Positions 31,597-63,086 of a stretch of DNA of 64,000 nt are shown one piece after another (position 1 is the stretch's first letter; every line of letters starts with the position of its first letter). Origin of the DNA: Vulcanimicrobiota bacterium (GTDB taxonomy: Bacteria; Vulcanimicrobiota; Vulcanimicrobiia; Vulcanimicrobiales; Vulcanimicrobiaceae); NCBI GenBank assembly GCA_963714015.1, contig OY970223.1:2240001-2304000 (forward strand). The letters run 5' to 3'. The notes under the pieces were generated by a model that saw only the letters and a list, made by a program, of their open reading frames with translations, was not told the DNA's origin and did not search any database. The position numbers were made by a program, and so were the translations under genes.

Positions 31597-33698
31597 ATGC
31601 CCAATCTCTCCAGCAGAATATTCAGAAATTTGGTCGCCGCAGGGATCAGCACGGCGCTTGCCTTCTCCGGCCTTACGCCGGCGATCGCGCAAGAAGCGCC
31701 CAGCCATTCTCATGCAAGCGGCCGTGCTTCCGCAAGCTCCGGTTCACCGCAGCAGTCGTACCGCGCAACTAGTGCGCCCGAGCGTTCGTACAGCGCACCT
31801 CAGCGTTCGTACAGCGCACCTCAGCGTTCGTACAGCGCACCCGAACGCGCGTACAGCGCCCCCGAGCGTTCGTACAGCGCACCGGAGCGTTCGTACAGCG
31901 CACCTGAGCGTTCGTACAGCGCACCGGAGCGTTCGTACAGCGCCCCCGAGCGTTCGTACAGCGCACCCGAACGCGCGTATAGCGCACCCGAACGCGCGTA
32001 TAGCGCTCCGCAAGCTCCGGCACGATCGTACGATGCGCCCCAACCGCAGCAAAACCCGGTCTATCGGGCGAACACTGCGCCTCCGCGCCCGCAGCGCTCG
32101 TACGAAAGCGCGCAGCCGCAGGTGCATAAGATTGCTCCGGCGCGGCCCGCGCGGTTAGAGAGCCCTCTGCAAACAGAAGTCCATACATACACGACGCCGC
32201 GTGCAGCGGTTCGCACCTACACGGCCCCGCGCGCAGCGGTTCGCACCTACACGGCCCCGCGCGCAGCGGTTCGCACCTACACGGCCCCGCGCGCAGCGGT
32301 TCGCACGTACGCGTCCCCGCGCGCAGCGGTTCGCACGTACGCGGCGCCGCGTGCAGCGGTTCGCACCTACACGACGCCGCGAGCAGCGGTTCGCACCTAC
32401 ACGACGCCGCGTGCAGCGGTTCGCACCTACACGACGCCGCGTGCAGCGGTTCGCACCTACACGGCCCCGCGTGCAGCGGTTCGCACGTACACGGCCCCGC
32501 GAGCTTCATTTATACAGCGCGTTCGGGTGAACACGCCGCAGCGGGTTGTGGTGAAGCCTCGCGTGCAAGCTCGTACGACGCCGTTCGTGCAATACGTTCG
32601 CGTGAATGCGCCGCGGGTGCGCACGGTCCGGGAGTTGCCTTCAGTGTCGTATCGGCCGGCCGTACTTACGGGACGCGTGGTTCGCGTCGTGCGTAACAAC
32701 TATGTCGTGCTGGCTCCTCCGGCCGGACGTGAGGTGTTCGTCCGCTGCATGTGCGGAACGCAGGTTCGTGCGAACCAGTACGTGACGATTCCGGCAAACT
32801 ACAGCAACGGAAGTTACTATGCATCGGCACCGATGCAGTACTATCCGCAGGTGGCGCAGTGGTACCAAAACAACGGCGGCTACTATTCCGGGTATTCTAC
32901 CAGCTATCCGTCTCAGCTATTACGGCGGCGGTTCGCCGTACTACAACAACGCAGGATACTCATATTACGGAAACACGTCTCCCTATTATAACGGCTATCC
33001 GTACGGTAACAGTGCGTATTACGGCAATGCCCCGAATTACGGCAGCACTCCATATTACGGGACCGCGCCGTACTACGGCACCACTCCGTACAGTCCCAGC
33101 GGATATCCGTACTACGACGCGTCGACTGCATATCCGTACTACACTCCGGGCTACTACGGATCCGGCCCTTCGCTCGTCGAAGAGCTCGCCATCGGATTGC
33201 TCCCGGAGCTGATTCCTAATCTTCCTCCGCAGTACGCAGGTCTTCTCGGAGCGCTGACGGGATCGTACGGCGGTTCTGTACAGGGCGGTTCCGTACACGG
33301 GCGGATTGCCGTACACGGGCGGATTGCCGTACACGGGCGGAACCCCGTACTACGGCGGCAACACCGGTTACTATAACAACGGTTACAGCAACACGTCGCC
33401 GTATCCGAGCAACGGCTACAATGCAAGCCCGTATTACGGAAATCAATACTCCGCCGCCCCGTATGCCGGATACAACGCCGGCGGCTTGCAGCTGGCTCAG
33501 CAGCAGGTGCAGGGAGTCGTGCTCGCGCGCGACGGCAATGTGCTGATGGTGCAGAGCGGCCTGACGCCCGTGCTGGTCGATGCAAGTCCGGCTTTCCAAA
33601 ACGGCAACGCGCTCAGCGGGCCGATCGCGGCCGGCCAAGTCGTCCAGGCAATGGGTTACTACAACGGCAGCACGTTCATGGCAACAGCGCTCGAATAA
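31597..33698 (+). CDS. secreted repeat-rich, Tyr/Gly-rich low-complexity protein, frameshifts near 32912 and 33290
   Basis: Signal peptide ending PAIA-Q. Three track ORFs (31597.., 32819.., 33306..) join through one continuous YG-rich tract. Ends in a small beta-rich domain (VQGVVLARDGNVLMV...VQAMGYYNG). Confidence 0.7.
31771..32013 (+). repeat. coding tandem repeat, 21 nt x 11, (S/A)YSAP(E/Q)R
   Basis: GAGCGTTCGTACAGCGCACCN units read directly. Confidence 0.97.
32185..32505 (+). repeat. coding tandem repeat, 30 nt x 10 plus a partial unit, TYT(A/T)PRAAVR
   Basis: ACGGCCCCGCGCGCAGCGGTTCGCACCTAC units read directly. Confidence 0.97.
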
Positions 33699-36243: not shown

Positions 36244-37070
36244 TGCCAGTCAAAAAATACAAGCCGACCAGTCCCGGCAGACGCTTCGTGACGACGATGG
36301 ATTTCTCGGACCTGAGCAAGGTCGAGCCGGAGAAATCGCTCATCGAAGTGCGCAAGAAGCACTCGGGCCGTAACTTCAACGGGCACATTACCGTACGCCA
36401 CAAAGGCGGCGGGACGCGCAAGATGTACCGCATCATCGACTTCAAACGGACCAAAGACGCCGTTCCGGCCAAGGTGGCAACGATCGAATACGATCCGAAC
36501 CGCTCGGCTCGCATCGCGCTGGTGAACTATCGCGACGGCGAGAAGCGCTACATCCTCGCGCCGCTCGGTCTGAAGGTCGGCGACGTCGTCGAGTCCGGCG
36601 CCGCGGCCGACATCAAGATCGGCAACTGCCTTCCGATCAAAAACATCCCCGTCGGCACGGTCATTCACAACATCGAACTGCGGCCCGGACAAGGCGGCAA
36701 GCTCGTTCGCAGCGCCGGCGGCTCCGCACAGCTCATGGCCAAGGAAGGCGAATACGCCCAGGTACGTATGCCTTCGGGCGAGGTGCGCAAGGTGCTCGTG
36801 GTGTGCCGCGCGACGATCGGTCAGCTCGGCAACGTCGAGCACGAAAACGAAGTGGTAGGGAAAGCAGGTCGTCAGCGTCATCGCGGAAAGCGGCCGTCCG
36901 TTCGAGGCATTGCGATGAACCCGGTCGATCACCCGCACGGCGGCGGTGAAGCGCGTTCCACGTCCGGACGTCCGCCCACGACGCCTTGGGGCCAGATGAC
37001 GATGGGCAAGAAGACGCGCCGCAACAAGCGCACGCAAAACATGATCGTCCGTAAGAGAGGATCGAAATGA
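36243..37070 (+). CDS. rplB: 50S ribosomal protein L2
   Basis: [33 protein letters not shown]; alternative ATG at 36240. Confidence 0.99.
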
Positions 37071-37147
37071 TTCGAGTTCTGTTAGCCGTATGCGAGCCGC
37101 GCGATTCAGCGCGGCGGGCGCGCAGCTCAGAGTGGAGCGCCTTCTAA
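37067..37147 (+). other. candidate bridging mini-ORF (26 aa)
   Basis: ATGA overlap with the rplB stop; TAA ends 1 nt before the rpsS ATG. Confidence 0.4.
37096..37141 (+). repeat. structured intergenic element, short form (before rpsS)
   Basis: GCCGCGC-GATTCA-GCGCGGC hairpin, then GGCGC-GCA-GCT-CAG-AGT-GGA-GCGCC, 7 nt before ATG. Confidence 0.85.
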
Positions 37148-37148
37148 A

Positions 37149-37424
37149 ATGGGGCGCAGCCTTAAAAAGGGACCGTTCGTCGCGGATCGCTTGATTCAAA
37201 AAATCGAGGGCCTGAACGAGCGCCGTGAAAAGCGTGTCGTGAAAACGTGGAGTCGCGCCTCCACGATCGTGCCGGCCATGGTCGGCCATACAATCGGCGT
37301 GCACAACGGTAAGGCGCACGTTCCGGTATTCGTCACCGAAAATATGGTCGGGCACAAGCTCGGCGAGTTCGCGCCGACCCGGAACTTCCGCGGCCACGGC
37401 GGCGACAAAGCGGCGGTGAAGTAA
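37149..37424 (+). CDS. rpsS: 30S ribosomal protein S19
   Basis: [27 protein letters not shown]. Confidence 0.99.
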
Positions 37425-37933
37425 TGGAGGCCGTCGCGCATCTCAAGTTCGCCCGAATGGGTCCGCGCAAACTGCGCCGGGTTGCCGACGCCATTCGCGG
37501 CAAGAGCGTGAAAGAAGCGCTCGTGCTGCTGCAATTTGCCGGCGTCTTCGCGGCCGAGCCGATGGAAAAACTGCTGCGCAGCGCCGTCGCGAACGCTGAA
37601 AACAATCACGACATGAATGCCGACGCACTTTACGTTGCGCGGGTGACGGTGGACGGCGGGCCGGGCGGACGATTTACCAAACGCCTGGATCCGCGTGCAC
37701 AAGGGCGCGCGGCGTTCAAGCGCAAGCGCCTCGCGCACGTGACGATCGCCGTCGCAGAGCAGGCGCCCGTCAAAAAGCGCAAGCTCCTGGGCGGTGCTTC
37801 GGTTGCGCTCAAGCGCGCGACCACTCGCAAAACTAAAGCGGCGTCGGCGGCGCCGGCCGCCGGCGGCTCGCCTTCGAAGAAGGCCAGAACTTCAAAGAAA
37901 CCTTCTCGCCGGAATAAGGCGGAGGCGATTTAA
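37424..37933 (+). CDS. rplV: 50S ribosomal protein L22 with Lys/Ala-rich C-terminal extension
   Basis: [32 protein letters not shown]. Confidence 0.97.
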
Positions 37934-38829
37934 TGGGACAAAAGATTCATCCGATTGGGTTGCGTCTGGGCATCACGCGCACGTGGGACAGCCGCTGGTT
38001 CGAGAAAAAGCATTATAAGGACTGGCTGCACGAAGACGTCAAGATCCGCAGATACTTCACGCGATGGATGCGTCCGGCGGCCATCTCGAAGATCGAGATC
38101 GAGCGCCGCGCCAATCAAGCGCGCGTGATCGTGAATACGGGCAAGCCCGGCATCATCATCGGCAAGCGCGGCGTCGGCATCGAAGACATTCGCAAGAATC
38201 TCGAGAAGCTGACCGGCAAAGCGGTGCAAGTAAACGTGATGGAGATCAAGCATCCGGAACTGGATGCGCGTCTCGTCGCGCAGAATATCGTCGACCAGCT
38301 CGAAAAGCGCATTGCGTTCCGCCGCGCCATGAAGCAGGCCATCATGCGTACGATGAAGTCGGGCGCGCGCGGGATCAAAGTGCAGGTTTCGGGACGGTTG
38401 GGCGGCGCCGAAATCGCTCGCACCGAGCGCAATGCCGACGGCAAGGTTCCGCTGCACACGCTGCGAGCCGACATCGACTACGCGCACGTCGAAGCTTTCA
38501 CGACCTTCGGACGCATCGGCGTCAAAGTATGGATCTACCGCGGCGAAGTGCTGCCGGATCACGCACGTCAATCCGAGCGCGAAGGACGCCCCGAGCGTCC
38601 GCAATTCCGCGATCGTCGCGATCGCGGCGGACGCAGCCGCCGCGGCGGTCCCGGCACGGGAACTCCGCGTTCGCCGCAGACTGAAGCGCTTTCGCCCGTC
38701 GAAGCGCCCGTCGGCGAAGCGCCGGCCTTTGAGCCGACCGCGCCGCCGGTAGACTCTGCGCCCATTGCCGATGCGGCAGAGGCTCAAACCATCGTACCGC
38801 AATCCGAACCGACCGGAGAACAGGCGTAA
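37933..38829 (+). CDS. rpsC: 30S ribosomal protein S3 with long C-terminal extension
   Basis: [33 protein letters not shown]. Confidence 0.99.
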
Positions 38830-39251
38830 TGCTTACACCAAAACGCGTCAAATGGCGCAAAGTTCACCGTGGACGGATGACCGGCAAAGCCTTGCGCGGC
38901 AGTACCTTGACGTTCGGCGAGTACGGACTTCAAGCGCTCGAGCCGTGCTGGATGACCAACCGCCAGATTGAAGCTGCGCGTATTGCTATGACGCGCCACA
39001 TCAAACGCGGCGGCAAGGTCTGGATCAAGGTGTTTCCGGACAAGTCGGTTACCAAGAAACCCGCTGAGGTGCGCATGGGCGCCGGTAAAGGCAACCCGGA
39101 GTTCTGGGTAGCCGTGGTGCGTCCCGGGCGGGTGCTGTTCGAGCTTTCAGGTGTTGAGCCGGACGTAGCCAAACGCGCGCTTCAACTCGCCGCTTCAAAG
39201 CTGCCGATCGGAACGAAGTTGATTACCCGCGGCGAGGAGGCCCCGGCATGA
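38829..39251 (+). CDS. rplP: 50S ribosomal protein L16
   Basis: [21 protein letters not shown]. Confidence 0.99.
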
Positions 39252-39469
39252 TCTCGAGAGAGTTCAAAGAGCTGCGCAACCTCACCATCGGAGAGCTCCA
39301 GCAAAAGGCGAAAGAGACGAAGGAAGAGCTCTTCAATCTTCGCTTTGCGCTGCGCACCGGGCACCTTTCGGACTTCAGCAAAGTCCGGGCGATGCGGCGC
39401 ACCTACGCACAGATTCAAACCGTCATCTCCGAGAAACGGATCGCTGAGGCTAAGAATGGAGCAGCTTAA
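39248..39469 (+). CDS. rpmC: 50S ribosomal protein L29
   Basis: ELR.L...EL......KEELFNLRF...TG.L; expected position. Confidence 0.96.
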
Positions 39470-39728
39470 TACCGTCCGGCGCCGGGCACGGCGCCTTAAA
39501 CAAGGCCGCGTCGTCTCGGACAAGATGGACAAGACCATCGTCGTCCTTTCCGAGACGCGGGTTCCGCATCCGGTTTACGGCAAGATCGTCCGCAAGTCGG
39601 TAAAGTTCAAAGCGCACGACGAGCAAAACGACGCCAAGATCGGCGACACCGTTCGCATCATGGAATCGCGTCCGATGTCCAAAGACAAGCGCTGGCGCCT
39701 GGTCGAGATCGTGGAGCGTGCCAAATGA
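39456..39728 (+). CDS. rpsQ: 30S ribosomal protein S17
   Basis: [31 protein letters not shown]. Confidence 0.98.
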
Positions 39729-39796
39729 AGACTTTGATTGGGGCGCATCGCGTTATGGGGCGCGCGGAGCTCAGAGCGGAGCGCCTTTTCAAATGA
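39725..39796 (+). other. candidate bridging mini-ORF (23 aa, [23 protein letters not shown])
   Basis: ATGA overlap with the rpsQ stop at its start and with the rplN start at its end. Confidence 0.45.
39761..39785 (+). repeat. structured intergenic element, short form (before rplN)
   Basis: CGCGC-GGA-GCT-CAG-AGC-GGA-GCGCC, 7 nt before ATG. Confidence 0.88.
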
Positions 39797-40170
39797 TTCA
39801 GCAAGAAACGCGTTTAAAGGTGGCTGACAATTCCGGCGCGCGCGAGCTGCTGTGCATTCACGTGAGCGGCGGCAGCCGTCATCCATACGCACACGTGGGC
39901 GATATCATCGTGGGCACGGTCAAGAGCGCTATTCCCGGCGCGGCGGTCAAGAAAGGCCAAGTCGTCAAAGCGGTTATCGTCCGTACGTCCTCGCCGATTC
40001 GCCGGCCGGACGGATCGGTCGTCAAATGCGACGACAACGCCTGCGTGATCATCAAAGGCGAAAAGGACAATTTAGATCCGCGCGGGACGCGCGTCTTCGG
40101 CCCGGTCATGCGCGAATTGCGGGATCGCGGCTTTTTGAAGATCGCCTCGCTCGCGCCCGAGGTACTCTAA
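39793..40170 (+). CDS. rplN: 50S ribosomal protein L14
   Basis: [31 protein letters not shown]. Confidence 0.99.
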
Positions 40171-40173
40171 CAG

Positions 40174-40524
40174 ATGGCGAACATCGTCAGAGGCGACACC
40201 GTCATGATCCGGCGCGGCAAGGAAAAAGGCAAGCGCGGCACGGTCAAGGCCGTATTTCCGAAAGACGGAACGGCGACGGTCGAGGGCCTGAACATCGTCA
40301 AACGGCACACCAAGCAGGGCACGCAGTCGCAAAACATGGGCGGCTCTGCGCAGACCGGCGGCATCATCGAGAAGGAGGCTCCGCTTCCACTCTCCGTGCT
40401 GATGTACGTGTGCGAGAAGTGCAAAGCACCTTCTCGGCTTCGTCATCACGAGACGGCCGAAGGTACGCATCGGGTCTGCGCGCGCTGCGGCGAACCCGCT
40501 CGTCTCTCCGCAAAGGGCGCATGA
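40174..40524 (+). CDS. rplX: 50S ribosomal protein L24
   Basis: GDTV...GKEKGKRG, VEGLNIVKRH, GGIIEKEAP; C-terminal CxxC...CxxC. Confidence 0.98.
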   Translation: MANIVRGDTVMIRRGKEKGKRGTVKAVFPKDGTATVEGLNIVKRHTKQGTQSQNMGGSAQTGGIIEKEAPLPLSVLMYVCEKCKAPSRLRHHETAEGTHRVCARCGEPARLSAKGA

Positions 40525-40652
40525 TGGCAGTATCATTGTGGGCTTCCTCGGGGAGGTTTCAAGTTGCAACAAAGTTCGCGCGCCCTGCGGTAGCGGGGAC
40601 CCCGGCGCTTGCGCTGGGTGGGGCGGAGGTTAGACCGGAGCGCCATGCTTAG
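40521..40652 (+). other. candidate bridging mini-ORF (43 aa)
   Basis: ATGA overlap with the rplX stop; reads through the whole element and stops 8 nt into rplE. Confidence 0.4.
40541..40644 (+). repeat. structured intergenic element, long form (before rplE)
   Basis: CCTCGGGGAGG...CAACAAAG...CGCGCCCTGCGG...variable hairpin...GGGGC-GGA-GGT-TAG-ACC-GGA-GCGCC, directly abutting ATG. Confidence 0.9.
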
Positions 40653-41196
40653 ATTGAAAGAAAAATACGATAAGGAAGTCCGCAAGCAGCTTCAGGAACG
40701 CTTCGGATATAAGAACGCTCACCAGATCCCGAAGCTGGAGAAGGTCGTCATCAACATGAGCGTGGGCGAAGCGATCAGCAACGGCAAGGCACTCGACGCG
40801 GCGGTCTCGGAGCTCCAGGCGATTAGCGGGCAAAAGCCGGTAATCACCAAAGCGAAGAAGTCGATAGCCGCCTTTAAGCTGCGCGAAGGCATGAACATCG
40901 GCACGAAAGTCACGCTCCGCGGCGAGCGCATGTACGTGTTCTTGGACAAGCTCTTCAACATCGTGCTGCCGCGCATCCGCGACTTCCGCGGTCTGCCCCG
41001 CAAATCGTTCGACGGACGCGGCAATTACAATCTGGGTCTTCGCGAGCAGATCGTCTTCCCGGAGATCAACTTCGACAAGGTCGACAAGATGCGCGGGATG
41101 GACATCGTCATCGTAACGTCGGCAAAGAACGACGAAGAAGCGACGGAATTTCTCACGGCAATGGGTTTGCCGCTTCAGAAAACGGGAGCCCGCTAA
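40645..41196 (+). CDS. rplE: 50S ribosomal protein L5
   Basis: [33 protein letters not shown]. Confidence 0.99.
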
Positions 41197-41381
41197 TGGC
41201 GAAAACTTCTCTCATCGAAAAATCCAAGCGCACGCCAAAGTTCAAGGTGCGCGCCCACAACCGGTGCCAGCTGTGCGGACGTCCGCGCAGCGTGTACCGC
41301 CGTTTCGGGCTGTGCCGCATCTGCTTCCGGGAGAACGCCCACAAAGGCAACATCCCGGGCGTGACCAAGGCGTCGTGGTGA
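41196..41381 (+). CDS. rpsN: 30S ribosomal protein S14, short zinc-binding type
   Basis: 61 aa with [17 protein letters not shown] and PGVTKASW. Confidence 0.98.
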
Positions 41382-41388
41382 TCCGGTA

Positions 41389-41790
41389 ATGGCTGTAATT
41401 ACCGATCCTATCGCCGATCTGCTGACGCGCATTCGCAATGCCAATACGGCCAGCCATGAGGTCGTTGAAATTCCTGCGTCGCGCATGAAACAAGCTGTGG
41501 CTCAAATCCTCAAGGACGAGGGCTTCATCAAGGACTTCGAGCGCGTCGACGAGGGGCCGCAAGGCAGGATCAAGATCACTCTCAAGTACGGCCCGGACAA
41601 AGAGAAAGTCATCACCGGTCTGCGGCGCATCTCGCGTCCCGGTCTGCGCGTATATACGAGCAAGACCGAGATACCTCGGGTTTTAGGCGGACTGGGCCTG
41701 GTCATCATGTCCACTTCCAAGGGCATCATGTCGGGCAAACGCGCGAAAAAAGAAGGATGCGGAGGCGAAGTTTTGGCGTATGTGTGGTGA
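41389..41790 (+). CDS. rpsH: 30S ribosomal protein S8
   Basis: [37 protein letters not shown]. Confidence 0.99.
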
Positions 41791-41900
41791 TGAACAAAGC
41801 GACAATCGGGGCGCCCTCGGGGAGGCTTCAAATTACAACGCATCTTCCGCGCCCTGCGGCGGGGGGCCCCATTGGTTGCAATGGGGGGCGCGGAGCTTAG
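41790..41900 (+). other. candidate bridging mini-ORF (36 aa)
   Basis: TGATG overlap with the rpsH stop; its stop codon is the TAG loop of the conserved hairpin. Confidence 0.4.
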
Positions 41901-41911
41901 AGCGGAGCGCC
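41810..41911 (+). repeat. structured intergenic element, long form (before rplF)
   Basis: GGCGCCCTCGGGGAGGCTT...CAAC...CGCGCCCTGCGG...CCCCATTG-GTTG-CAATGGGG-GGCGC-GGA-GCT-TAG-AGC-GGA-GCGCC, 7 nt before ATG. Confidence 0.92.
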
Positions 41912-41918
41912 ACTTAAA

Positions 41919-42467
41919 ATGTCTAGAATTGGAAAGCTTCCCGTAACTGTTCCGAACGGCGTCAATGTGAACGTCGAAGGAGACGAAGTCGCGGTCAAGG
42001 GGCCAAAGGGCGAGTTGCGGCAGCGCGTGCTTTCACACGTCACCGTCGCGGTCGAAGACGGCAAGGTCGTCATCACGCGGAACGGTGAGGCGAAGGAACA
42101 TCGCGCGGCGCACGGTCTGACGCGAACGATCGTCAACAACATGGTCGAAGGCGTCAGCAAGGGCTTCCGCAAGAGCCTGGAGATTCAGGGTGTCGGTTAC
42201 CGAGCCTCAAAGTCCGGCGAGAAGATCAATCTGACGCTGGGGTACTCGCATCCGGTGAGCTACGATCCGCCGAAGGGCATCGCGCTTTCCGTCGAGGGCA
42301 CCAACAAGATCCACGTCGAGGGCATCGACAAGCAGCAAGTCGGACAGGTTGCCGCCGAAATTCGCAATCTGCGTCCGCCCGAGCCGTACAAGGGTAAAGG
42401 CGTGCGCTACGAAGGCGAAGTGGTGCGTAAGAAGCTCGGCAAGGCCGGAAAGGCTGGTAAGAAGTAA
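41919..42467 (+). CDS. rplF: 50S ribosomal protein L6
   Basis: [26 protein letters not shown]. Confidence 0.99.
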
Positions 42468-42832
42468 TGCCGCGTATTTCCAAAGATCTGAGCCGCCGCA
42501 AGCGCCACGAGCGTCTGCGCCGCAAAGTCGTGGGAAGCTCGGAGCGCCCTCGCTTGCTGATCCGCCGTACGCTGCATCACATCTACGCGACGGTCGTCGA
42601 CGACGCTAAGGGGCATACCGTCGTGGCCGCCTCGACGCGCGAGAAGGATCTTACGGACGGTTTGGATTCCACGACGAACGTCGCCGCAGCCGAGAAGATC
42701 GGCGCGGCAATCGCCGCTAAGGCAAAGCAGGCCGGCATCACGCAGGTCGTCTTCGATCGCAGCGGTTTGAAATATCACGGCCGCGTCAAAGCACTCGCCG
42801 ACGCAGCTCGCCAAGCAGGCTTGGAGTTTTAA
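42467..42832 (+). CDS. rplR: 50S ribosomal protein L18
   Basis: RH.RLR.KV.G..ERPRL, VVFDRSG.KYHGRV.ALA. Confidence 0.98.
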
Positions 42833-43344
42833 TGCAGTATCGTGGTGGTCGCGATCGCGACAATTCGGGATTCGAAGAGACAGTCGTCCGAGTGAACCGC
42901 GTCGCCAAAGTGGTCAAGGGCGGTAAGCGCTTCAGCTTCAGCGCTTTGGTCGTTGTCGGCGATCGCAAAGGCAAGGTCGGTTTCGCTATCGGCAAGGCCG
43001 GCGAAGTCCCCGAAGCAATCCGCAAAGCCGTTGAGGCGGCCAAGAAAAACCTCGTCTCCGTGCCGATGGTCGAGAAGACGATCCCGCATCAGGTCAATCA
43101 TTCGATCGGTGCGGCGCGCGTGCTCCTCAAACCCGCGGCGCCCGGTACCGGGGTCATTGCGGGCGGCGCTATGCGCGCGGTGCTGGAGCTCGCGGGCATT
43201 CACGACATTCTGACCAAGTCGCTCGGAACGAACAATCCGATCAACGTCGTCTACGCGACGGTAGAAGCGCTGCGTTCGCTCAAGACGGCGGAGCAAGTTG
43301 CATCGATGCGCGGCAAGAACGTCGGCGAAATCTTCGCGGCATAA
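42832..43344 (+). CDS. rpsE: 30S ribosomal protein S5
   Basis: [30 protein letters not shown]. Confidence 0.99.
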
Positions 43345-43358
43345 GAAAGCACACGAAC

Positions 43359-43961
43359 ATGGCAGAGAAGAAAACGTCCAAAGCCGCAACCTCGCGCAAG
43401 AAGGCTCCGGCGGCAAAGGCGGCAGCAAAGAAGCGAAGCACGGCAAGTGCCGTCACCGCCGCCGCGATTGCGTCCGGGAGCGGCTCGATGTCGCTTGGAA
43501 AGCTCAAACCGGCCGAAGGCAGCTGGCCCAAGCGCACGCGCGTGGGCCGCGGTCACGGTTCCGGAATGGTTAAGACCGGCGGCGAAGGCGGCAAAGGTCA
43601 GACGGTGCGTTCCGGCGGCGGTAAAGGTCCGGCGTTCGAAGGCGGACAGACACCTTGGCAGCGCCGTCTTCCGCATCGTCGCGGCTACTCGCAAAAAGCC
43701 CGCGACATCGGTCATTTCCGGACCGAGCTCGCGGTTGTAAATCTGCATGACCTTGCGGACTGGGACGCCTCGGTCGAAGTGACGCCGCAGACGCTCAAGG
43801 TCGCGAAGAAGATCAAAGCCGTGCGCGACGGCGTGAAGGTCCTCGGCGGTAGCAAGGCGGGGAAGACGCTTCCGAACGGCCTTCGTTTCCGCGACGTTTT
43901 ATTCTCGACCAGCGCAAAGGAAGCACTGCAAGCCGCCGGCGCCACCTTCGATGCTGAATAA
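43359..43961 (+). CDS. rplO: 50S ribosomal protein L15 with 43-aa Lys/Ala-rich N-terminal extension (alternative start 43488)
   Basis: RVGRGHGSG..KTGG.GGKGQ..RSG, FEGGQTP..RRLP, VKVLG. Confidence 0.95.
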   Translation: MAEKKTSKAATSRKKAPAAKAAAKKRSTASAVTAAAIASGSGSMSLGKLKPAEGSWPKRTRVGRGHGSGMVKTGGEGGKGQTVRSGGGKGPAFEGGQTPWQRRLPHRRGYSQKARDIGHFRTELAVVNLHDLADWDASVEVTPQTLKVAKKIKAVRDGVKVLGGSKAGKTLPNGLRFRDVLFSTSAKEALQAAGATFDAE

Positions 43962-45255
43962 TCTTCGCGCAGCTCTGCTCGTACCGGACATCCGCAAGCG
44001 GGTGCTCTTCGTGTTCGGCGCGTTCGCGACGTTCGTCTTTATGATCCACGTGCAGCTGCCGAACATCGATGAAAAAGTTTGGCAGCAGGTGCTCTCGCAG
44101 GGCGCGTTCTTCAACCTGCTCGGCTTTCTGTCGGGCGGCGCACTGCAGAAGCTCTCCATCATTGCGATGGGCATCACCCCGTACATCAACGCGTCGATCA
44201 TCATGCAGCTCATGACGGTGGTGCTGCCGCAACTCGAAGAGATGGCCAAGAAAGGCGGCGAGGAAGGCCGCAAGAAGATCGGTCAGTACACTCGCTGGCT
44301 AACGATTGTGCTCGCTGCACTCCAATCGTTTTTCATGGCCAATCTGATGCGCAACTCCGGCGTGTTCTACGACCGGAGCATCTGGTTTCTGCTCTTCGCG
44401 ATGCTGGCGTTCGTCGCCGGTACGCTGTTCCTGATGTGGCTCGGCGAGCAGGTCACCGACAAGGGCATCGGCAACGGCGTCTCGCTGATCATCTTCATCG
44501 GTATCGTGCTGCGCTATCCGCAGTACGTAGCCCAAACGTTCGCCTCGACCTCCAAAGGCGGCGAGTCCGTTTTCAACATCCTCATTTACGTCCTGATAGC
44601 GATAGGCGTAATCATCTCGATCGTCTTCCTTTATCAAGGGCAGCGCCGCATTCCGGTGCAGCAGGCGCGCCGCGTCGTGGGCCGCAAGATGTTCGCGGGC
44701 CGCTCCACGTATATTCCGTTGCGGCTGAACAACGCGGGCGTCATCTCGATCATCTTCGCAATCTCGCTGCTGCTGCTTCCCCAGCAAGTTCTCTCGTGGG
44801 TCAACAAGGCGCAGAACGGCGGCTCGTCCAGCGGATTCATGGGCGGCCTCTCGACGTTCTTCCAGGTCTACTTCCACCCGCAGTCGGCGCTGTACAACAT
44901 CGTCTATTTCGTGCTGGTCGTCGTCTTCACGTTCTTCTACAGCGCGATCGTCATCAACACCAAAGACATCGCGGACAACCTGAAAAAGAGCGGGTCGTTC
45001 ATCCCGGGAATCCGTCCGGGTCAACCGACGGTCGACTACATCAATCGCATCTTGCTGCGAATCACGACGGCCGCCGCGATCTATCTCGGATTGCTCGCGG
45101 TCGTGCCCAGCATTGCCCAGCAAGGACTCTCCGTTACTACGTTCTACTTGGGTTCAACGTCACTGCTGATCGTGGTCGGCGTGGCGCTGGATACGATCAC
45201 GCAGATCGAGGCGCGCCTGGCGATGCGCGACTACAAGGGATTCATCCGCAGGTAG
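43951..45255 (+). CDS. secY: preprotein translocase subunit SecY
   Basis: GITPYINASIIMQL, WLGEQ.T.KGIGNG.SL, FIPGIRPG, TSLLIVVGV. Confidence 0.99.
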   Translation: MLNNLRAALLVPDIRKRVLFVFGAFATFVFMIHVQLPNIDEKVWQQVLSQGAFFNLLGFLSGGALQKLSIIAMGITPYINASIIMQLMTVVLPQLEEMAKKGGEEGRKKIGQYTRWLTIVLAALQSFFMANLMRNSGVFYDRSIWFLLFAMLAFVAGTLFLMWLGEQVTDKGIGNGVSLIIFIGIVLRYPQYVAQTFASTSKGGESVFNILIYVLIAIGVIISIVFLYQGQRRIPVQQARRVVGRKMFAGRSTYIPLRLNNAGVISIIFAISLLLLPQQVLSWVNKAQNGGSSSGFMGGLSTFFQVYFHPQSALYNIVYFVLVVVFTFFYSAIVINTKDIADNLKKSGSFIPGIRPGQPTVDYINRILLRITTAAAIYLGLLAVVPSIAQQGLSVTTFYLGSTSLLIVVGVALDTITQIEARLAMRDYKGFIRR

Positions 45256-45262
45256 GGGCGTA

Positions 45263-45928
45263 GTGCGGTTGATCTTCATCGGTCCGCCCGGCGCGGGCAA
45301 GGGCACGCAGGCAAAGATTCTGCAAGAGCGCTTCGGCGCCAAGCAGATCTCGACCGGCGACATCTTGCGTGAGAATCGGGAGCAAGGAACGGAGCTCGGC
45401 AAGCTCGCGGCGAGCTTCATGCAGAGCGGCGCGCTGGTTCCGGACGAGGTCATCATCAAGATGATCGAAGCGGAGCTCGACAAGCTCGACGGCGGTTTCA
45501 TCATGGACGGTTTTCCACGAACGGTCGCGCAGGCGGAAGCGTTCGACTGTTTATTGCAGGGCAAGAACCTCGTCCTCGACGGCGTGGTTCACTTCAACGC
45601 GGACCGCGCAACGCTGCTTACGCGTCTGACGGCGCGCTGGACGAACCCGCGCAACGGCCAAACCTACAACACCGTGACCAATCCGCCGCGCGTTTCGGGT
45701 GTGGACGACGAAGACGGCGGCCCGCTCGTGCAGCGTGAGGACGACAAACCGGAAACCGTTACGAAGCGTCTGGACGTGTACGAGGAGCAAACCGCGCCGC
45801 TTGTCTCCTACTATCGCGGGACGGGAAAACTCGTCGAAGTGAACGCGCTTGCGCCGGTTCCTGCGGTCACCGAAGAGATCGTTTCGAAGATCGGTGTGCA
45901 CGCCGCCGGGCGCAACGCGGCGCAATGA
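45263..45928 (+). CDS. adk: adenylate kinase
   Basis: GPPGAGKGTQA, STGDILR, DGFPRT, QREDD. Confidence 0.98.
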   Translation: MRLIFIGPPGAGKGTQAKILQERFGAKQISTGDILRENREQGTELGKLAASFMQSGALVPDEVIIKMIEAELDKLDGGFIMDGFPRTVAQAEAFDCLLQGKNLVLDGVVHFNADRATLLTRLTARWTNPRNGQTYNTVTNPPRVSGVDDEDGGPLVQREDDKPETVTKRLDVYEEQTAPLVSYYRGTGKLVEVNALAPVPAVTEEIVSKIGVHAAGRNAAQ

Positions 45929-46728
45929 TCACGATCAAGTCGGCCCGTGAAATCGAGGTGATGCGGCGCAGCGGAAAGGTCAACGCCAAGGTGCTGGCCG
46001 ATCTGATGCGCGCGGCCAAGCCCGGCATGACGACGCGCGATCTCGACAAGATGGCCGAGCAAGGCATTCGATCGCTGGGCGCTGAGCCGACGTTCAAAGG
46101 TTATCACGGGTATACGTGTTCGATCTGCACGTCGGCGAACGATCAAGTCGTGCACGGAATTCCCGGCGACTACGCTTTGAAGGAAGGCGACCTGCTCTCG
46201 ATCGACATCGGGGCGACGCTCGAGGGCTACGTCAGCGACTCGGCTGTAACGATTCCGATCGGCAAAGTCTCCGAGGACGCTCAGCGGCTGATGCACGTGA
46301 CGCAGGAGTGCTTAATGATTGGAATCGCGCAGATGTATCGGGGCAAGCATTTGGGCGACATCGGCCACGCGGTTCAAAAGCACGCCGAATCGCACGGATA
46401 CGGCGTGGTCCGCGAACTAGTCGGGCACGGCGTCGGAACGAAAATGCACGAGGAGCCGCAAGTCCCGAACTACGGCAAGGCAGGCGGGGGGTTGGAGCTT
46501 CGGTCGGGGCTTGTCCTGGCCATCGAGCCCATGATAACGCAAGGCCACTACGCCGTGGAAACGCTCAAGGACGGCTGGACAGTGGTGACCGCAGATGGTA
46601 AACTCGCAGCGCACTTCGAGCACACCATCGCCATCACCGACGACGGCCCCAAGATTCTTACCTTGCGCGAAATCGGGGAGCATCCCGACGTCGCGAAGTA
46701 CCGGCCAAAGGAAGAGATGGCCGCATGA
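45925..46728 (+). CDS. map: methionine aminopeptidase type I
   Basis: VVHGIP, IDIG...DSA, GHGVG..MHEEP, AIEPM, AHFEHT. Confidence 0.98.
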   Translation: MITIKSAREIEVMRRSGKVNAKVLADLMRAAKPGMTTRDLDKMAEQGIRSLGAEPTFKGYHGYTCSICTSANDQVVHGIPGDYALKEGDLLSIDIGATLEGYVSDSAVTIPIGKVSEDAQRLMHVTQECLMIGIAQMYRGKHLGDIGHAVQKHAESHGYGVVRELVGHGVGTKMHEEPQVPNYGKAGGGLELRSGLVLAIEPMITQGHYAVETLKDGWTVVTADGKLAAHFEHTIAITDDGPKILTLREIGEHPDVAKYRPKEEMAA

Positions 46729-46743
46729 GGTGGTGCTCGATGG

Positions 46744-47007
46744 GGCGCGGAGGCTAGGCCGAAGCGCCGTTAGAAATCGTCCCGGCGCCCCTCGGGGAGG
46801 CTTGGACCGGCAACAAAGCACTAGGGCGCCTGAGGAATCGGGGGCCCCATGAAATGGGGGGCGCGGAGGCTAGGCCGAAGCGCCGCTAGATCGAGCAAAA
46901 TCGTCCCGGCGCCCCTCGGGGAGGCTTGGACGGCAACAAAGCACTAGGGCGCCTGAGGAATCGGGGGCCCCATGAAATGGGGGGCGCGGAGGCTAGGCCG
47001 AAGCGCC
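46744..47007 (+). repeat. tandem array of the structured element (three terminal hairpins, two full long-form units)
   Basis: GGCGC-GGA-GGC-TAG-GCC-GAA-GCGCC at 46744, 46860 and 46983. Long units 46784-46884 and 46908-47007 differ by one base. Confidence 0.95.
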
Positions 47008-47014
47008 GTTAGAT

Positions 47015-47131
47015 ATGAAAGTCAGACCGTCAGTAAAACGAATCTGTGAAAAATGCAAAATCATTCGCCGCGAAGGTAAAGTGCGCGTGATCTGCGAGGT
47101 CAATCCCAAGCACAAGCAAGTGCAGGGTTAG
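47015..47131 (+). CDS. rpmJ: 50S ribosomal protein L36
   Basis: Manual translation [38 protein letters not shown] (below the ORF-track length cutoff). Confidence 0.99.
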
Positions 47132-47185
47132 GCTTATAAACGCTACCCTTCGACCAGCTCAGGATCATAAGGAAGAATTTAAAAA

Positions 47186-47572
47186 ATGGCACGTATAGCC
47201 GGTATCGACCTTCCCCGCGACAAGCGCATCGAGATCGCGCTTACGTACATCTACGGGATCGGTCTGAGGACCTCGCAGAAGCTGCTCGCGCACGCGGGAA
47301 TCAGCCCGGATCTGCGCGTCAAAGAGTTGAGCGAAGATCACGAGAAGAAGCTGCGCGACGCGATCGACGCGGTCGGGATAAAAGTCGAAGGCGATCTGCG
47401 GCGCGAGGTCGGCTCGCACATCAAGCGGCTGATGGATATCGGCTGCTATCGCGGCATTCGGCACCGGCGCGGCCTTCCGGTCCGCGGCCAGCGTACCAAG
47501 ACCAACGCGCGCACGCGGAAGGGCCCGAAGAAAACGGTCGGCAACCGGAAAAAAGCGGCCGCTAAGAAGTAG
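47186..47572 (+). CDS. rpsM: 30S ribosomal protein S13
   Basis: [36 protein letters not shown]. Confidence 0.99.
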
Positions 47573-62077: not shown

Positions 62078-63086
62078 GTGCTAGTGCAGTACGCGTCCCT
62101 TTTGCGTCGTCTCATCGGGGGAGGAAACCTCACCGGGGACGAGGCGGCCGCCATGATCGGCGAGATTATGGACGGTGCCTTTACCTCCGCCCAGGCCGCC
62201 GGTCTGCTGACGGCGCTTGCAATGAAGGGTGAGGCTATCGACGAGGTTGTGGGCGCCGCTCGCGCGATGCGCGACCGCAGCCTGCATGTCGAACACAGCC
62301 TGCCGATGGTAGTGGACGTCGTCGGGACCGGCGGCGACAACGCAAATACGATCAACATCTCGACGATGACGGCGCTCGTCGTTGCCGCCGGCGGCGTGGC
62401 CGTTGCTAAGCATGGCAACCGGGCAGCCTCGAGCGCGTGCGGAAGCGCGGACGTGTTGGAGGCGGCCGGCATGACGATCGACGTCGAGCCCGAGCGAGCC
62501 GCACACATGCTTCATGAATCCGGCTTCACCTTCATGTTCGCGCCGCGCTACCACCCGGCGATGAAAAACGTCGCGCCGGTGCGCCGCGAGCTGGGTGTCC
62601 GCACGATCTTCAATGTCCTCGGGCCTTTGACGAATCCGGCACGCGCCACGCATCAAGTCGTCGGTGTCGCGCAGGAGGCTCACATCGAACTGATGGGCGA
62701 GGTGCTGCGCGGGTTGGGTGTGCGCGGCGGCGCAATCGTGCACGCTTCGAGCGGTATCGACGAGGTCAGCGGCGAAGGGCCGACGACCGTGTACACGTTC
62801 GGCGAGGGCGAGAGTAAACGCTGGACCCTCGATCCTGCACGCTTTGGAATTCACGCAAACCTCGATGCACTGCGCGGAGGTTCGGTTGAAGCGTGCAAGG
62901 ACGCTTTCGAGAGCATCCTTTCCGGCGAGCATTCACCGCGGTCGGACGTCATTGCACTCAATGCCGGACTCGTTTTCTCCACTTGCGGCAAAACGCGGGA
63001 CCTCGAGGAGGGTCTGGAATTGGCGCGCACGCTTCTGAAAGAGGGCCGCGCCGCGGCGCTGTTCGAGCGCGCGAAACACCTTTCAC

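Follow-up and report, generated by a model that had tools for sequence, protein, structure and literature searches.

A lineage-specific interspersed repeat with a three-helix fold at stop/start junctions of Baltobacteraceae operons

Copies of the element in the window

The window, which is the whole stretch of 64,000 nucleotides that was analysed, carries a repeated unit of about 120 nt between the genes rplX and rplE, rpsH and rplF, and map and rpmJ, and shortened forms of the unit lie before rpsS, before rplN and within the map-rpmJ junction. The unit occurs singly or in tandem arrays at stop/start junctions, in the direction of transcription. It is described here by three helices backed by covariation: P1, formed by a block at the 5' end and a GCGCC block in the middle, P2, the variable hairpin, and P3, the terminal hairpin.

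The long copy before rplE (40525..40644, + strand) fills the space between the rplX stop codon (40522-40524) and the rplE start codon (40645-40647), and is matched at 40532-40655, with 98.9 bits, by R1, one of two covariance models (R1 and R2) used to search relatives. Its P2 pairs approximately 40601-40607 with 40612-40618, followed by P3 at 40620-40644. An open frame of 43 codons (40521..40652, + strand) spans the copy; in translation, its ATG overlaps the rplX stop codon (ATGA) and its TAG ends 5 nt past the ATG of rplE. The long copy before rplF (41791..41918, + strand), between the rpsH stop codon (41788-41790) and the rplF start (41919), is matched by R1 at 41801-41922 (113.9 bits) and contains P1 (41808-41814 with 41849-41855), P2 (41867-41874 with 41879-41886) and P3 (41887-41911), in the last of which the inner stem has 3 bp, the loop reads TAG and the internal loop is GGA/GGA. 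It is likewise spanned by an open frame, of 45 codons (41780..41917, + strand), whose ATG lies 8 nt before the rpsH stop codon and whose TAA ends 1 nt before the rplF ATG.

From the map stop codon to the rpmJ start (47015), the junction is occupied by a tandem array (46729..47014, + strand), made up of one short unit (46729-46774; P3 46744-46768) followed by two long ones, repeating every 123 nt, which R1 matches at 46775-46895 (80.0 bits) and 46899-47018 (88.3 bits). The frame of the last unit before rpmJ is open and has a TAG 2 nt before the ATG, with no start codon at its 5' end. Two other short copies were found, both on the + strand. The one between rplB and rpsS (37071..37148; P3 37117-37141; rpsS start 37149) is degenerate and aligns as a deleted version of a full copy at the same junction in L050, and the one between rpsQ and rplN (39729..39792; P3 39761-39785; rplN start 39793) is a deletion derivative of a full copy at the same junction in L051. 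All short forms in the window keep only the 3' part of the unit.

The four long copies described in an earlier note on this DNA were all recovered by R1, with scores of 80.0-113.9 bits, and the ordered blocks, the G-run and the variable-stem pairings which it quoted, including GCCGCGC/GCGCGGC in the rpsS copy, can be read directly in the window sequence. The terminal-hairpin pattern, allowing at most 3 mismatches, has 5 matches in the window versus none in 100 shuffles. The motif CCTCGGGGAGG is present exactly in the 4 long copies and with one mismatch at 63001; shuffled sequences contain a mean of 1.4 matches, and 1 of 100 reached 5. The whole window has no Rfam family match at the gathering score, and a search of 36900-47300 with E-values up to 10 returned chance-level matches only, none of which overlaps a copy. 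Sequencing-run matches to window positions 40300-42100 were small-share soil and rock metagenome contigs only, with no RNA set listed, and a search of the literature on repeats in Eremiobacterota found nothing relevant among the papers listed.

Fold of the element

The element strand folds into three helices, which are maintained by compensatory changes. In alignment A3, P1, P2 and P3 together are paired in 89.0% of cases compared with 78.6% after shuffling, and their covariation is 0.271 compared with 0.111, a value reached by none of 500 shuffles; these and the other shuffle and permutation statistics given here overstate the independence of the copies, because the copies are related by descent. 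Six of the eight P1 pairs change on both sides, in an alignment built with a model from which P1 was absent. The independent alignment A4 gives similar values, with 91.3% paired (79.2% shuffled), a covariation of 0.297 (0.112 shuffled), and again 6/8 P1 pairs changed on both sides. An all-against-all covariation scan revealed no helices or pseudoknots beyond P1-P3, and the folding energies of single sequences are no better than those of shuffles (z from -1.6 to +1.0). The mini-hairpin CCTC-GGG-GAGG, which had been listed among the conserved blocks, is weak, with 66.9% paired.

P3 is the most conserved part of the unit and the part that short forms retain. Its purine internal loop usually reads GGAG, and about 113 of 120 P3 hairpins retain one GGAG or more. 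P1 has a compensated variant, found in 14 of 20 sampled copies of one relative (G015) and rare in both the genome of the window (G000) and another relative (G009).

A long-range pairing of GCGCCC(C/T) with GGGGCGC, the 5' arm of the terminal hairpin, had been proposed to free the Shine-Dalgarno arm in the manner of a switch. This complementarity is present in the window copies, but it stems from near-invariant GC blocks and not from a maintained pairing. Counted as the GCGCC block of the middle against the 5' arm of P3 plus the 5' block against the 3' arm of P3, the switch pairing is found in 82.9% of cells in A3, compared with 82.7% in shuffles (150/500 reach the observed value), and in 78.8% compared with 79.0% in A4; none of its 7 pairs in A3 or 12 pairs in A4 changes on both sides. 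Changes in the middle block are matched in the P1 partner, but not in the terminal arm: column 67 of A4 is unpaired with column 110 in 22/43 copies, and the pair 13-67 is kept in 39/43.

Distribution, position, gain and loss

Using nhmmer with E below 1e-9, we found about 35 long copies at about 25 loci of the 3.56-Mb genome. R1 has hits in 25 of 61 relatives, their number ranging from 0 to 47 per genome; among these relatives are 23/36 genomes of f1 (the Baltobacteraceae, Candidatus Eremiobacterota), 0/5 of f2 and 1/19 of f3. With R2 the family was detected in 49 of 71 sampled Baltobacteraceae genomes, and in none of the 79 genomes that represent 20 further families of its phylum. The element is a dispersed family specific to one lineage of uncultured soil bacteria, the Baltobacteraceae.

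The position of the copies relative to genes is narrowly defined. An open reading frame of at least 35 codons starts between -6 and +2 nt from the end of the match at 21/25 loci of G000, and the N-terminal fragments downstream match Pfam in 13 of 18 cases, including GyrB, AtpA, MreB, PrfA, NifU, FliG and FlbD; these downstream genes are functionally mixed and have no common function. All 34 matches in the ribosomal-protein operons of relatives are on the operon strand, and a single antisense copy was observed, in G009. One copy lies inside a tRNA cluster, a setting in which translation plays no part. The downstream start codon is 7-8 nt past P3 in about 80% of copies, within an A/T-rich tail. 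Among 41 terminal copies of G009 and G015, the start codon is within the tail in 33, and in 6 a separate Shine-Dalgarno sequence is followed by a start codon 1-36 nt further on. The genome has a canonical 16S rRNA 3' end, and genome-wide GGAG is over-represented 4-11 nt ahead of start codons; in P3, the GGAG on the 3' side is 11-12 nt away from the ATG, at the far limit of this spacing. A function of P3 as a terminator was considered and rejected, the T-run after it being only 3-4 nt long and absent in the rplE, rplF and rpmJ copies.

Orthologous junctions vary between filled and empty from one genome to another. Between rplX and rplE there are 120 nt in G000 and 2-24 nt in 12 relatives, iscS-iscU measures 167 nt versus 6-50 nt in 5 relatives, and the space between rpsH and rplF is 2 nt long in L049 and holds a remnant of 30 nt in L050; which operon junctions are filled differs from genome to genome. 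Empty sites have overlapping stop and start codons (TAATG, GTGA), and at filled sites the left junction often retains ATGA, TGATG or TAAATG, with AAATG(A) closing the tail. At iscS-iscU a few bases are replaced, not duplicated, and no clear target-site duplication could be defined at the compared junctions; a duplication of 13-15 nt, hinted at by L056 and the antisense copy of G009, failed across sites. The earlier suggestion of a non-autonomous mobile element is borne out in substance by these filled and empty orthologous sites and by genome-specific P1 variants, but the mechanism proposed with it is not. The family spreads and decays, the short forms being remnants that have lost their 5' part and retain P3 with the tail.

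Translation through the element and alternative readings

An open frame that spans the element and ends at a stop codon between -6 and +2 of the start codon is found in 70 of 76 copies. Of the frames that have this tail stop, 76 are open and 10 closed, compared with 55 open and 87 closed among those that lack it, and in the copies with exactly one open and one tail-stop frame, the two are the same frame in 20/20. A frame running through the whole element to a stop only a few bases from the start codon is present in 71/80 copies, compared with 49.8 ± 3.2 when the tails are permuted, and none of 5000 permutations reaches 71 (with the same reservation about shared descent). At the other end, the start codon of the spanning frame lies within 8 nt of the upstream stop codon in 11 of 13 junction copies. 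Relative to P1, the open/tail-stop frame is distributed as 31/25/20 over the three frames, and in frames fixed to P3 the depletion of stop codons is only mild, with 38 and 32 in two frames where about 50 ± 7 would be expected, and 86 in the remaining one. A conserved peptide was rejected, because the open frame differs between copies.

From stop-codon patterns only, we therefore infer that the element is probably translated and that expression of the next gene is thereby preserved. It is on the match of frames in 71/80 copies, against 49.8 ± 3.2, that we read the family as a lineage-specific, non-autonomous interspersed repeat resembling the MIRUs (mycobacterial interspersed repetitive units; Supply et al. 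1997), which probably acts as a translated coupling cassette. Ribosomes finishing the upstream gene would continue through the element, melting its helices, terminate beside the new start codon and re-initiate there, with P3 and the tail serving as the ribosome-binding region. Insertion would consequently cost the host little; the MIRUs of mycobacteria are proposed to act in this way.

Tandem arrangement is common among the MIRUs of mycobacteria as well. The passages on MIRUs in PMC12548453 and PMC3184786 describe repeats of 40-100 nt, with tetranucleotide direct repeats reported, whose internal ORF overlaps the flanking genes (ATGA, -4 spacing), with coupled translation. As far as these passages go, both families consist of short repeats at tens of loci, intergenic within operons, co-oriented with the genes and inserted at start codons, with filled and empty sites between relatives, internal GC-rich inverted repeats and no known transposase. 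The data obtained here agree with this description in the gene-co-oriented position (34/34 on the operon strand and 21/25 G000 loci, with the one antisense copy of G009), in the ends of the open frame, which abut the flanking genes (71/80 at the 3' and 11/13 at the 5' end, the last rpmJ unit being a counter-example), and in the filled and empty sites with insertion at the start codon. In contrast, our element belongs to an unrelated phylum and is likened to MIRUs by description, not by sequence; it is longer, about 120 nt versus 40-100, has a three-helix fold backed by covariation, and builds a start codon and a GGAG-bearing hairpin into its 3' end.

A different, and fairly unlikely, explanation is that the family is a start-codon-homing mobile element of a new kind, in which the three-helix strand, be it RNA or single-stranded DNA, guides the element precisely into stop/start junctions by means of a host enzyme or one that is still unrecognised. 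Such an element would have no need of a Y1/RAYT transposase, a reverse transcriptase, IS110 or TnpB, and would pay its way by rebuilding translational coupling. Targeted and strand-specific insertion is suggested, over random insertion followed by selection, because of the 7-8-nt precision, the sense bias and the lineage-specific compensated P1 variants.

Known CsrA sites carry GGA in apical loops. That P3, with its two GGA/GGAG motifs, is a site for a global RNA-binding regulator such as CsrA, making the copies the signal of a regulon, is quite unlikely, although it would be compatible with translation through the element. A csrA gene is present in G000, two flagellar genes (fliG and flbD) carry copies, and both the conservation of P3, which outlasts the rest of the unit in short forms, and its nearly constant GGAG would fit such a role; however, the GGA motifs are in an internal and not an apical loop, the downstream genes are of mixed function, and the rapid gain and loss between close relatives suits a selfish repeat better.

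REPs are single palindromes of 20-40 nt, found mostly downstream of genes. Like REPs and BIMEs, the element has GC-rich hairpins with compensatory changes, many copies per genome and putative transcription within mRNAs, and a derivative of a classical DNA transposon would account for the filled and empty sites, whether as a MITE bounded by terminal inverted repeats or as a REP-like palindrome that a Y1 transposase of RAYT/IS200 type mobilises. The ends, GGCGC...GCGCC, moreover resemble short inverted repeats in many copies (84% paired), and had been read as imperfect terminal inverted repeats in the earlier note. They do not behave as such, however: in neither A3 nor A4 do the 5' block and the 3' arm pair more often than in shuffles, compensated change is absent from A4, and A3 has just a single changed cell in each of 2 pairs. 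The pairing is also broken where the 5' block differs. Nor does a RAYT/TnpA gene, which the earlier note suggested looking for, accompany the element. Y1_Tnp (PF01797) is without a match in G000; the only one of 36 f1 genomes that has it is G016, which lacks the element, and in f3 it is found in 11/19 genomes and the element in 1/19; G000 likewise has no match to RVT_1 (reverse transcriptase), IS110 or TnpB. Together with a sense bias and a fixed distance to the start codon that are atypical of MITEs and REPs, this makes an origin of that kind decidedly unlikely.

We consider it very improbable that the element is a promoter cassette. The 5' flank of several copies has a -10-like sequence about 7 nt before P1 (CATAAT, TACAAT, GACAAT), and the ribosome-binding site and the ATG belong to the unit; yet relatives do not preserve this motif as a -10 box, many copies are within operons, where a promoter is unneeded, and a sigma-70 consensus scan of the + strand, which is crude and whose consensus may not fit this phylum, detected no promoter-like site at any window copy. 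In this the element would differ from Neisseria REP2 and the Borrelia IR, which are described with a promoter (PMC3184786), and to which it is otherwise similar in having no terminal inverted repeats. The passages on those repeats in the same source do not describe them as translated through or as replacing stop/start overlaps within operons.

Least probable of all is a two-state regulatory RNA resembling a riboswitch or protein-sensing leader, in which the middle GCGCC block would alternately pair with the 5' arm of the terminal hairpin and free or hide the Shine-Dalgarno arm: the blocks are complementary in the window copies, and the minimum-free-energy folds of some copies, such as the rplF copy and L004, choose the long-range pairing, but this pairing lacks covariation in both alignments, which by the criterion of the earlier note itself counts against a switch, and the downstream genes share no function. 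The ribosomal-protein leaders and riboswitches of Rfam do resemble the element in having a conserved 5'-leader fold that includes the Shine-Dalgarno region; the element differs from them in lacking an Rfam match and a conserved alternative pairing, and in preceding unrelated genes, in arrays and with a presence that varies between relatives at orthologous junctions.

The reading as a translated, MIRU-like repeat bears on more than this lineage. Translated repeats associated with start codons have so far been described for mycobacteria, as MIRUs, and an independent family that behaves alike, in a phylum without cultured members, points to a general strategy by which selfish DNA could inhabit operons cheaply, through the rebuilding of translational coupling. 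With many copies in dozens of genomes, a fold backed by covariation and stop codons that track the open frame, the family is useful for the study of coupling by termination and re-initiation, of the tolerance of structured RNA near start codons, and of movement with no recognisable transposase. For the annotation of Eremiobacterota, the 120-nt inserts alter the length of intergenic regions, the calling of start codons and a few codons at the ends of neighbouring genes.

Gain and loss of copies at gene junctions

The S10-spc-alpha ribosomal-protein gene cluster of the window, on the + strand, carries one long copy of the element between rplX and rplE (40525-40644, +), another between rpsH and rplF (41791-41918, +) and two tandem long units before rpmJ (46775-47014, +). 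These are the four long copies described in the earlier note; each scores 80-114 bits with the covariance model R1, and the sequence blocks, G-run, variable stem and terminal hairpin are all legible in them. Three further copies, upstream of rpsS, upstream of rplN and as the first unit of the rpmJ array, consist of the 3' part only. The terminal-hairpin pattern gives five matches in the window, and none in any of 100 shuffles. Two other tandem arrays, of about 10 copies with a 21-nt period (31729-32031) and about 11 copies with a 30-nt period (32114-32564), are probably repeats within a coding region, and an 18-nt unit (CCGTACACGGGCGGATTG) is present three times in tandem at 33291-33358.

After placing the ribosomal-protein genes, we measured the gene junctions at 57 Eremiobacterota loci, and found expansions of 100-130 nt at junctions that differ from genome to genome, with all 34 model matches on the operon strand. 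The rplX-rplE junction is 120 nt long in the window and 2-24 nt in the 12 relatives read. The rpsH-rplF junction is filled in the window, with other copies in L093, L094 and G007; it measures 2 nt at locus L049 and holds a 30-nt remnant, made of the 5' flank and tail, at L050. At the rpsS and rplN sites L050 and L051 have full copies, of which the short forms in the window align as internally deleted versions, while in other relatives the sites are empty and stop and start overlap (TAATG, GTGA). The iscS-iscU junction is 167 nt in the source genome, G000, and 6-50 nt in G001, G002, G007, G009 and G013. The lpxA site is filled in G000, empty in G001, G002 and G007, and occupied in G009 by an antisense copy (L142:1900-2048; G009:C122:13066-13213) that has a duplicate of the lpxA start region and an 8-bp inverted repeat (CCACCCAG/CTGGGTGG) on its flanks; this arrangement may be an inversion, or an insertion duplicating 13 nt of target. 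In G015, 14 of the 20 sampled copies, at different loci, have a common compensated variant of helix P1 (the 5' block with the middle GCGCC block), AGCCC/GGGCU or GGCCC/GGGCC, and P1 in G009 and G000 is mostly GGCGC/GCGCC. Such sharing suggests that copies amplified within lineages or evolved in concert.

These junctions demonstrate turnover between genomes: orthologous presence is not fixed, and the filled and empty sites, together with the lineage variants of P1, therefore support duplicative spread and loss. The proposal in the earlier note that the element is mobile is thus correct in substance, but the mechanism it names is not supported. G000 has no match to Y1_Tnp (RAYT/IS200), RVT_1, the IS110 DEDD transposase or the TnpB zinc-ribbon domain, and among relatives Y1_Tnp is found in one of 36 genomes of the Baltobacteraceae (family f1), which itself is without the element, and in 11 of 19 genomes of family f3, where the element is nearly absent. 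No target-site duplication was clearly definable at the compared junctions. These fit insertion directly 3' of ATG(A), with the element bringing a new ATG(A), unlike iscS-iscU, where a few bases are replaced.

At this iscS-iscU locus (L010, G000:C1:1539609-1539780) the full copy is preceded by three tandem repeats of its 5' flank, a 21-nt unit ending GGCGCC, and the last codon and stop of the upstream gene are unlike those of relatives. The apparent rpsC-rplP spacing varies from -76 to ~500 nt among relatives (L049-L105), probably because the C-terminal extension of RpsC varies, and not intergenic DNA.

A three-helix fold supported by covariation

RNAalifold, applied to 20 G000 copies, recovered two hairpins that both carry compensatory changes, P2 (variable) and P3 (terminal), and a side-by-side reading of 87 copies from many genomes revealed P1 as a third helix, with pairs such as GGCGC/GCGCC, UAGCGCGC/GCGCGCUA, ACGAGCCC/GGGCUCGU, GUGUGCGC/GCGCACAC, CGAACGC/GCGUUCG and CAGGCCCC/GGGGCCUG. 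In the copy alignment A3 the three helices are 89.0% paired (78.6% shuffled) and score 0.271 for covariation (0.111 shuffled), which none of 500 shuffles reached, and the signal collapses once the helix partners are slid by 1-3 columns. Six of the eight P1 pairs vary on both sides in A3, although its model had no P1. In A4, which is an independent set (43 copies, G009 and G015) but was aligned to a model already containing P1, pairing is 91.3% (79.2% shuffled) and covariation 0.297 (0.112 shuffled). An all-against-all covariation scan found no helix beyond P1-P3. Since the folding energies of single sequences do not improve on shuffled controls (z from -1.6 to +1.0), the fold rests on covariation, not stability.

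In P3 an outer stem of 5 bp (GGCGC/GCGCC) is followed by a purine internal loop (3x3), a covarying inner stem of 3 bp and a 3-nt loop, which is TAG in 48 and TGG in 26 of 126 copies. The strands of the internal loop are GCAG/GGAG in 40 copies, GGAG/GGAG in 36, GGAG/GAAG in 18 and GGAG/GCAG in 9, and at least one GGAG is retained in P3 of ~113/120 copies. The three helices could serve the insertion process, mRNA processing or stability, or protein binding. G000 has a csrA homologue (G000:C1:2836360-2836515, L197; 87.6 bits, inside a 325-aa open frame), but nothing ties csrA to the element.

The two-state switch suggested earlier would join the middle block to the 5' arm of P3, and the 5' block to its 3' arm. 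It is refuted by covariation, the very measure by which it was to be judged: neither alignment shows any, with 82.9% of cells paired in A3 (82.7% shuffled; the observed value is reached in 150 of 500 shuffles) and 78.8% in A4 (79.0% shuffled), and with 0/7 and 0/12 pairs, respectively, altered on both sides. Copies with a divergent middle block maintain P1 and lose the switch pairing. The proposed terminal inverted repeats are the outer half of the same structure and likewise fail to covary. The mini-hairpin CCTC-GGG-GAGG has just 66.9% of cells paired, the conserved part at its position being CCC-NN-GGG(G)A. The observation behind the switch is confirmed and the reading is not supported; the complementarity arises because several GCGCC/GGCGC blocks are near-invariant.

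Start codons and the open frame through the element

At 21 of 25 G000 loci an ORF of 35 codons or more starts -6 to +2 nt from the end of the match, which places the start codon inside the A/T-rich tail (typically GCGCC-TTTYAAA-ATG). The genes that follow are genuine and functionally unrelated: 13 of 18 N-terminal fragments in G000 match Pfam families, which include LpxA-like hexapeptide transferase, GyrB, biotin carrier domain, AtpA, MreB, HTH regulator, NifU, FliG, FlbD, Ser/Thr kinase, PrfA, DUF1246 and, once and weakly, DivIVA. Among 41 terminal copies in G009 and G015, the tail contains the start codon in 33; in six it lies 1-36 nt farther downstream and has a Shine-Dalgarno sequence of its own, and the last two are an antisense copy and an ambiguous one. 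The 3' end of the 16S rRNA is canonical and GGAG is enriched genome-wide 4-11 nt upstream of start codons; in the 3' arm of P3 the motif stands 11-12 nt before the ATG, at the far limit of this range. A crude sigma-70 consensus scan gave no promoter-like site on the + strand at the copies in the window.

Left junctions usually retain the former stop/start overlap (ATGA, TGATG, TAAATG), and the tail usually has a stop (TAA, TAG, or the TGA of ATGA) a few bases from the new ATG. An open frame that spans the body and ends at this tail stop is present in 70 of 76 distinct terminal copies, which are related by descent, as are those in the following counts. Of the frames that have a tail stop, 76 are open and 10 closed, against 55 open and 87 closed for frames without, and where a copy has a single open frame and a single tail-stop frame these coincide (20/20). 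Frame and stop agree in 71 of 80 cases, compared with 49.8 ± 3.2 when tails are permuted (0/5000 permutations reach 71), and in 25/25 copies with a single open frame. The spanning frame is distributed 31/25/20 across the three frames relative to P1, and is therefore not a single frame inherited from a common ancestor. Frames fixed to P3 have 38 and 32 stops, a mild depletion relative to the ~50 ± 7 expected, and the third has 86. At the 5' end, a start codon of the spanning frame, often within ATGA or TAAATG, lies at most 8 nt from the upstream stop in 11 of 13 junction copies situated 11-27 nt downstream of that stop.

In the rplE copy the ORF has 43 codons (40521-40652, +), its ATG overlapping the rplX stop and its TAG just beyond the rplE ATG; that of the rplF copy has 45 codons (41780-41917, +) and ends 1 nt short of the rplF ATG. 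In the last rpmJ unit (+) the open frame ends 2 nt short of the ATG, and its 5' end is without a start codon. The reading of the element as translated is weakened by the mildness of the stop depletion in frames fixed to P3, by the common descent of the copies and by one copy that sits within a tRNA cluster.

The tRNA cluster at L015:190-657 (G000:C1:2739907-2740374) has tRNA-Ser, a full copy, tRNA-Arg and tRNA-Met on one strand; tRNA-Ser also adjoins an isolated terminal hairpin, which is on the other strand. At the nuoM-nuoN junction of G000 (L018) the open frame of the element appears continuous with the upstream membrane-protein frame; if so, the upstream protein would gain an element-encoded C-terminal extension of ~40 residues.

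Distribution of the family and a proposed coupling role

G000 (3.56 Mb, one contig, 60.9% G+C) has ~35 long copies at ~25 loci, as determined with nhmmer, many of them in tandem arrays of 2-5 units with a period of 108-131 nt. The covariance model R1 matches the element in 25 of 61 relatives (f1, 23/36; f2, a further family, 0/5; f3, 1/19), with 0-47 matches per genome. The broader model R2 matches it in 49 of 71 f1 genomes and in none of 79 that represent 20 other families of the phylum. Four genomes marked as unpublished (G021, G023, G046, G047) contribute 4 of the 87 A3 rows and part of the tallies, and another, G010, enters A2 only; the conclusions are independent of all of them. No Rfam family matches the element, and full-text literature searches found no description of Eremiobacterota repeats of this type. 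In more distant relatives (L038-L042 and L094) extra hairpins of the GGGGTCCCC type separate the gene from P2, P3 and the tail, an arrangement that looks like a composite or related subfamily. The rpsQ-rplN junction of another Eremiobacterota genome (L062) has a different tandem repeat of ~45 nt, both units of which end with an element-like tail (TTTCAAATC / TTTAGATC-ATG), and which may be a second family of the same habit.

By description, the closest known kind is the mycobacterial MIRU. In the passages of a 2011 review that describe them (PMC3184786), MIRUs are 40-100 bp repeats, 40-50 in number, intergenic within polycistrons, with ORFs that overlap the adjacent genes, tetranucleotide direct repeats, GC-rich internal inverted repeats, and both empty and filled sites. 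The same passages describe the Neisseria REP2 and Borrelia IR repeats as having a built-in ribosome-binding site and ATG, no terminal repeats, and promoters (PMC3184786); the element resembles them in the first two respects, and the consensus scan of its window copies gave no promoter-like site.

The comparisons establish the fold, the location of the copies, their turnover among genomes and the link between open frame and tail stop. We infer that the unit is transcribed together with its flanking genes, and that ribosomes finishing the upstream gene would begin the spanning ORF, unwind P1-P3 while translating it, terminate beside the new ATG and re-initiate there, aided by the P3 GGAG and by the A/T-rich tail. 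Such coupling would explain why P3 and the tail are retained in the short forms, why insertions are tolerated in highly expressed operons, and why the sequence of the element peptide is unconserved. On these sequence comparisons, we would best describe the element as a new MIRU analogue, specific to its lineage: a structured and putatively translated coupling cassette at start codons.
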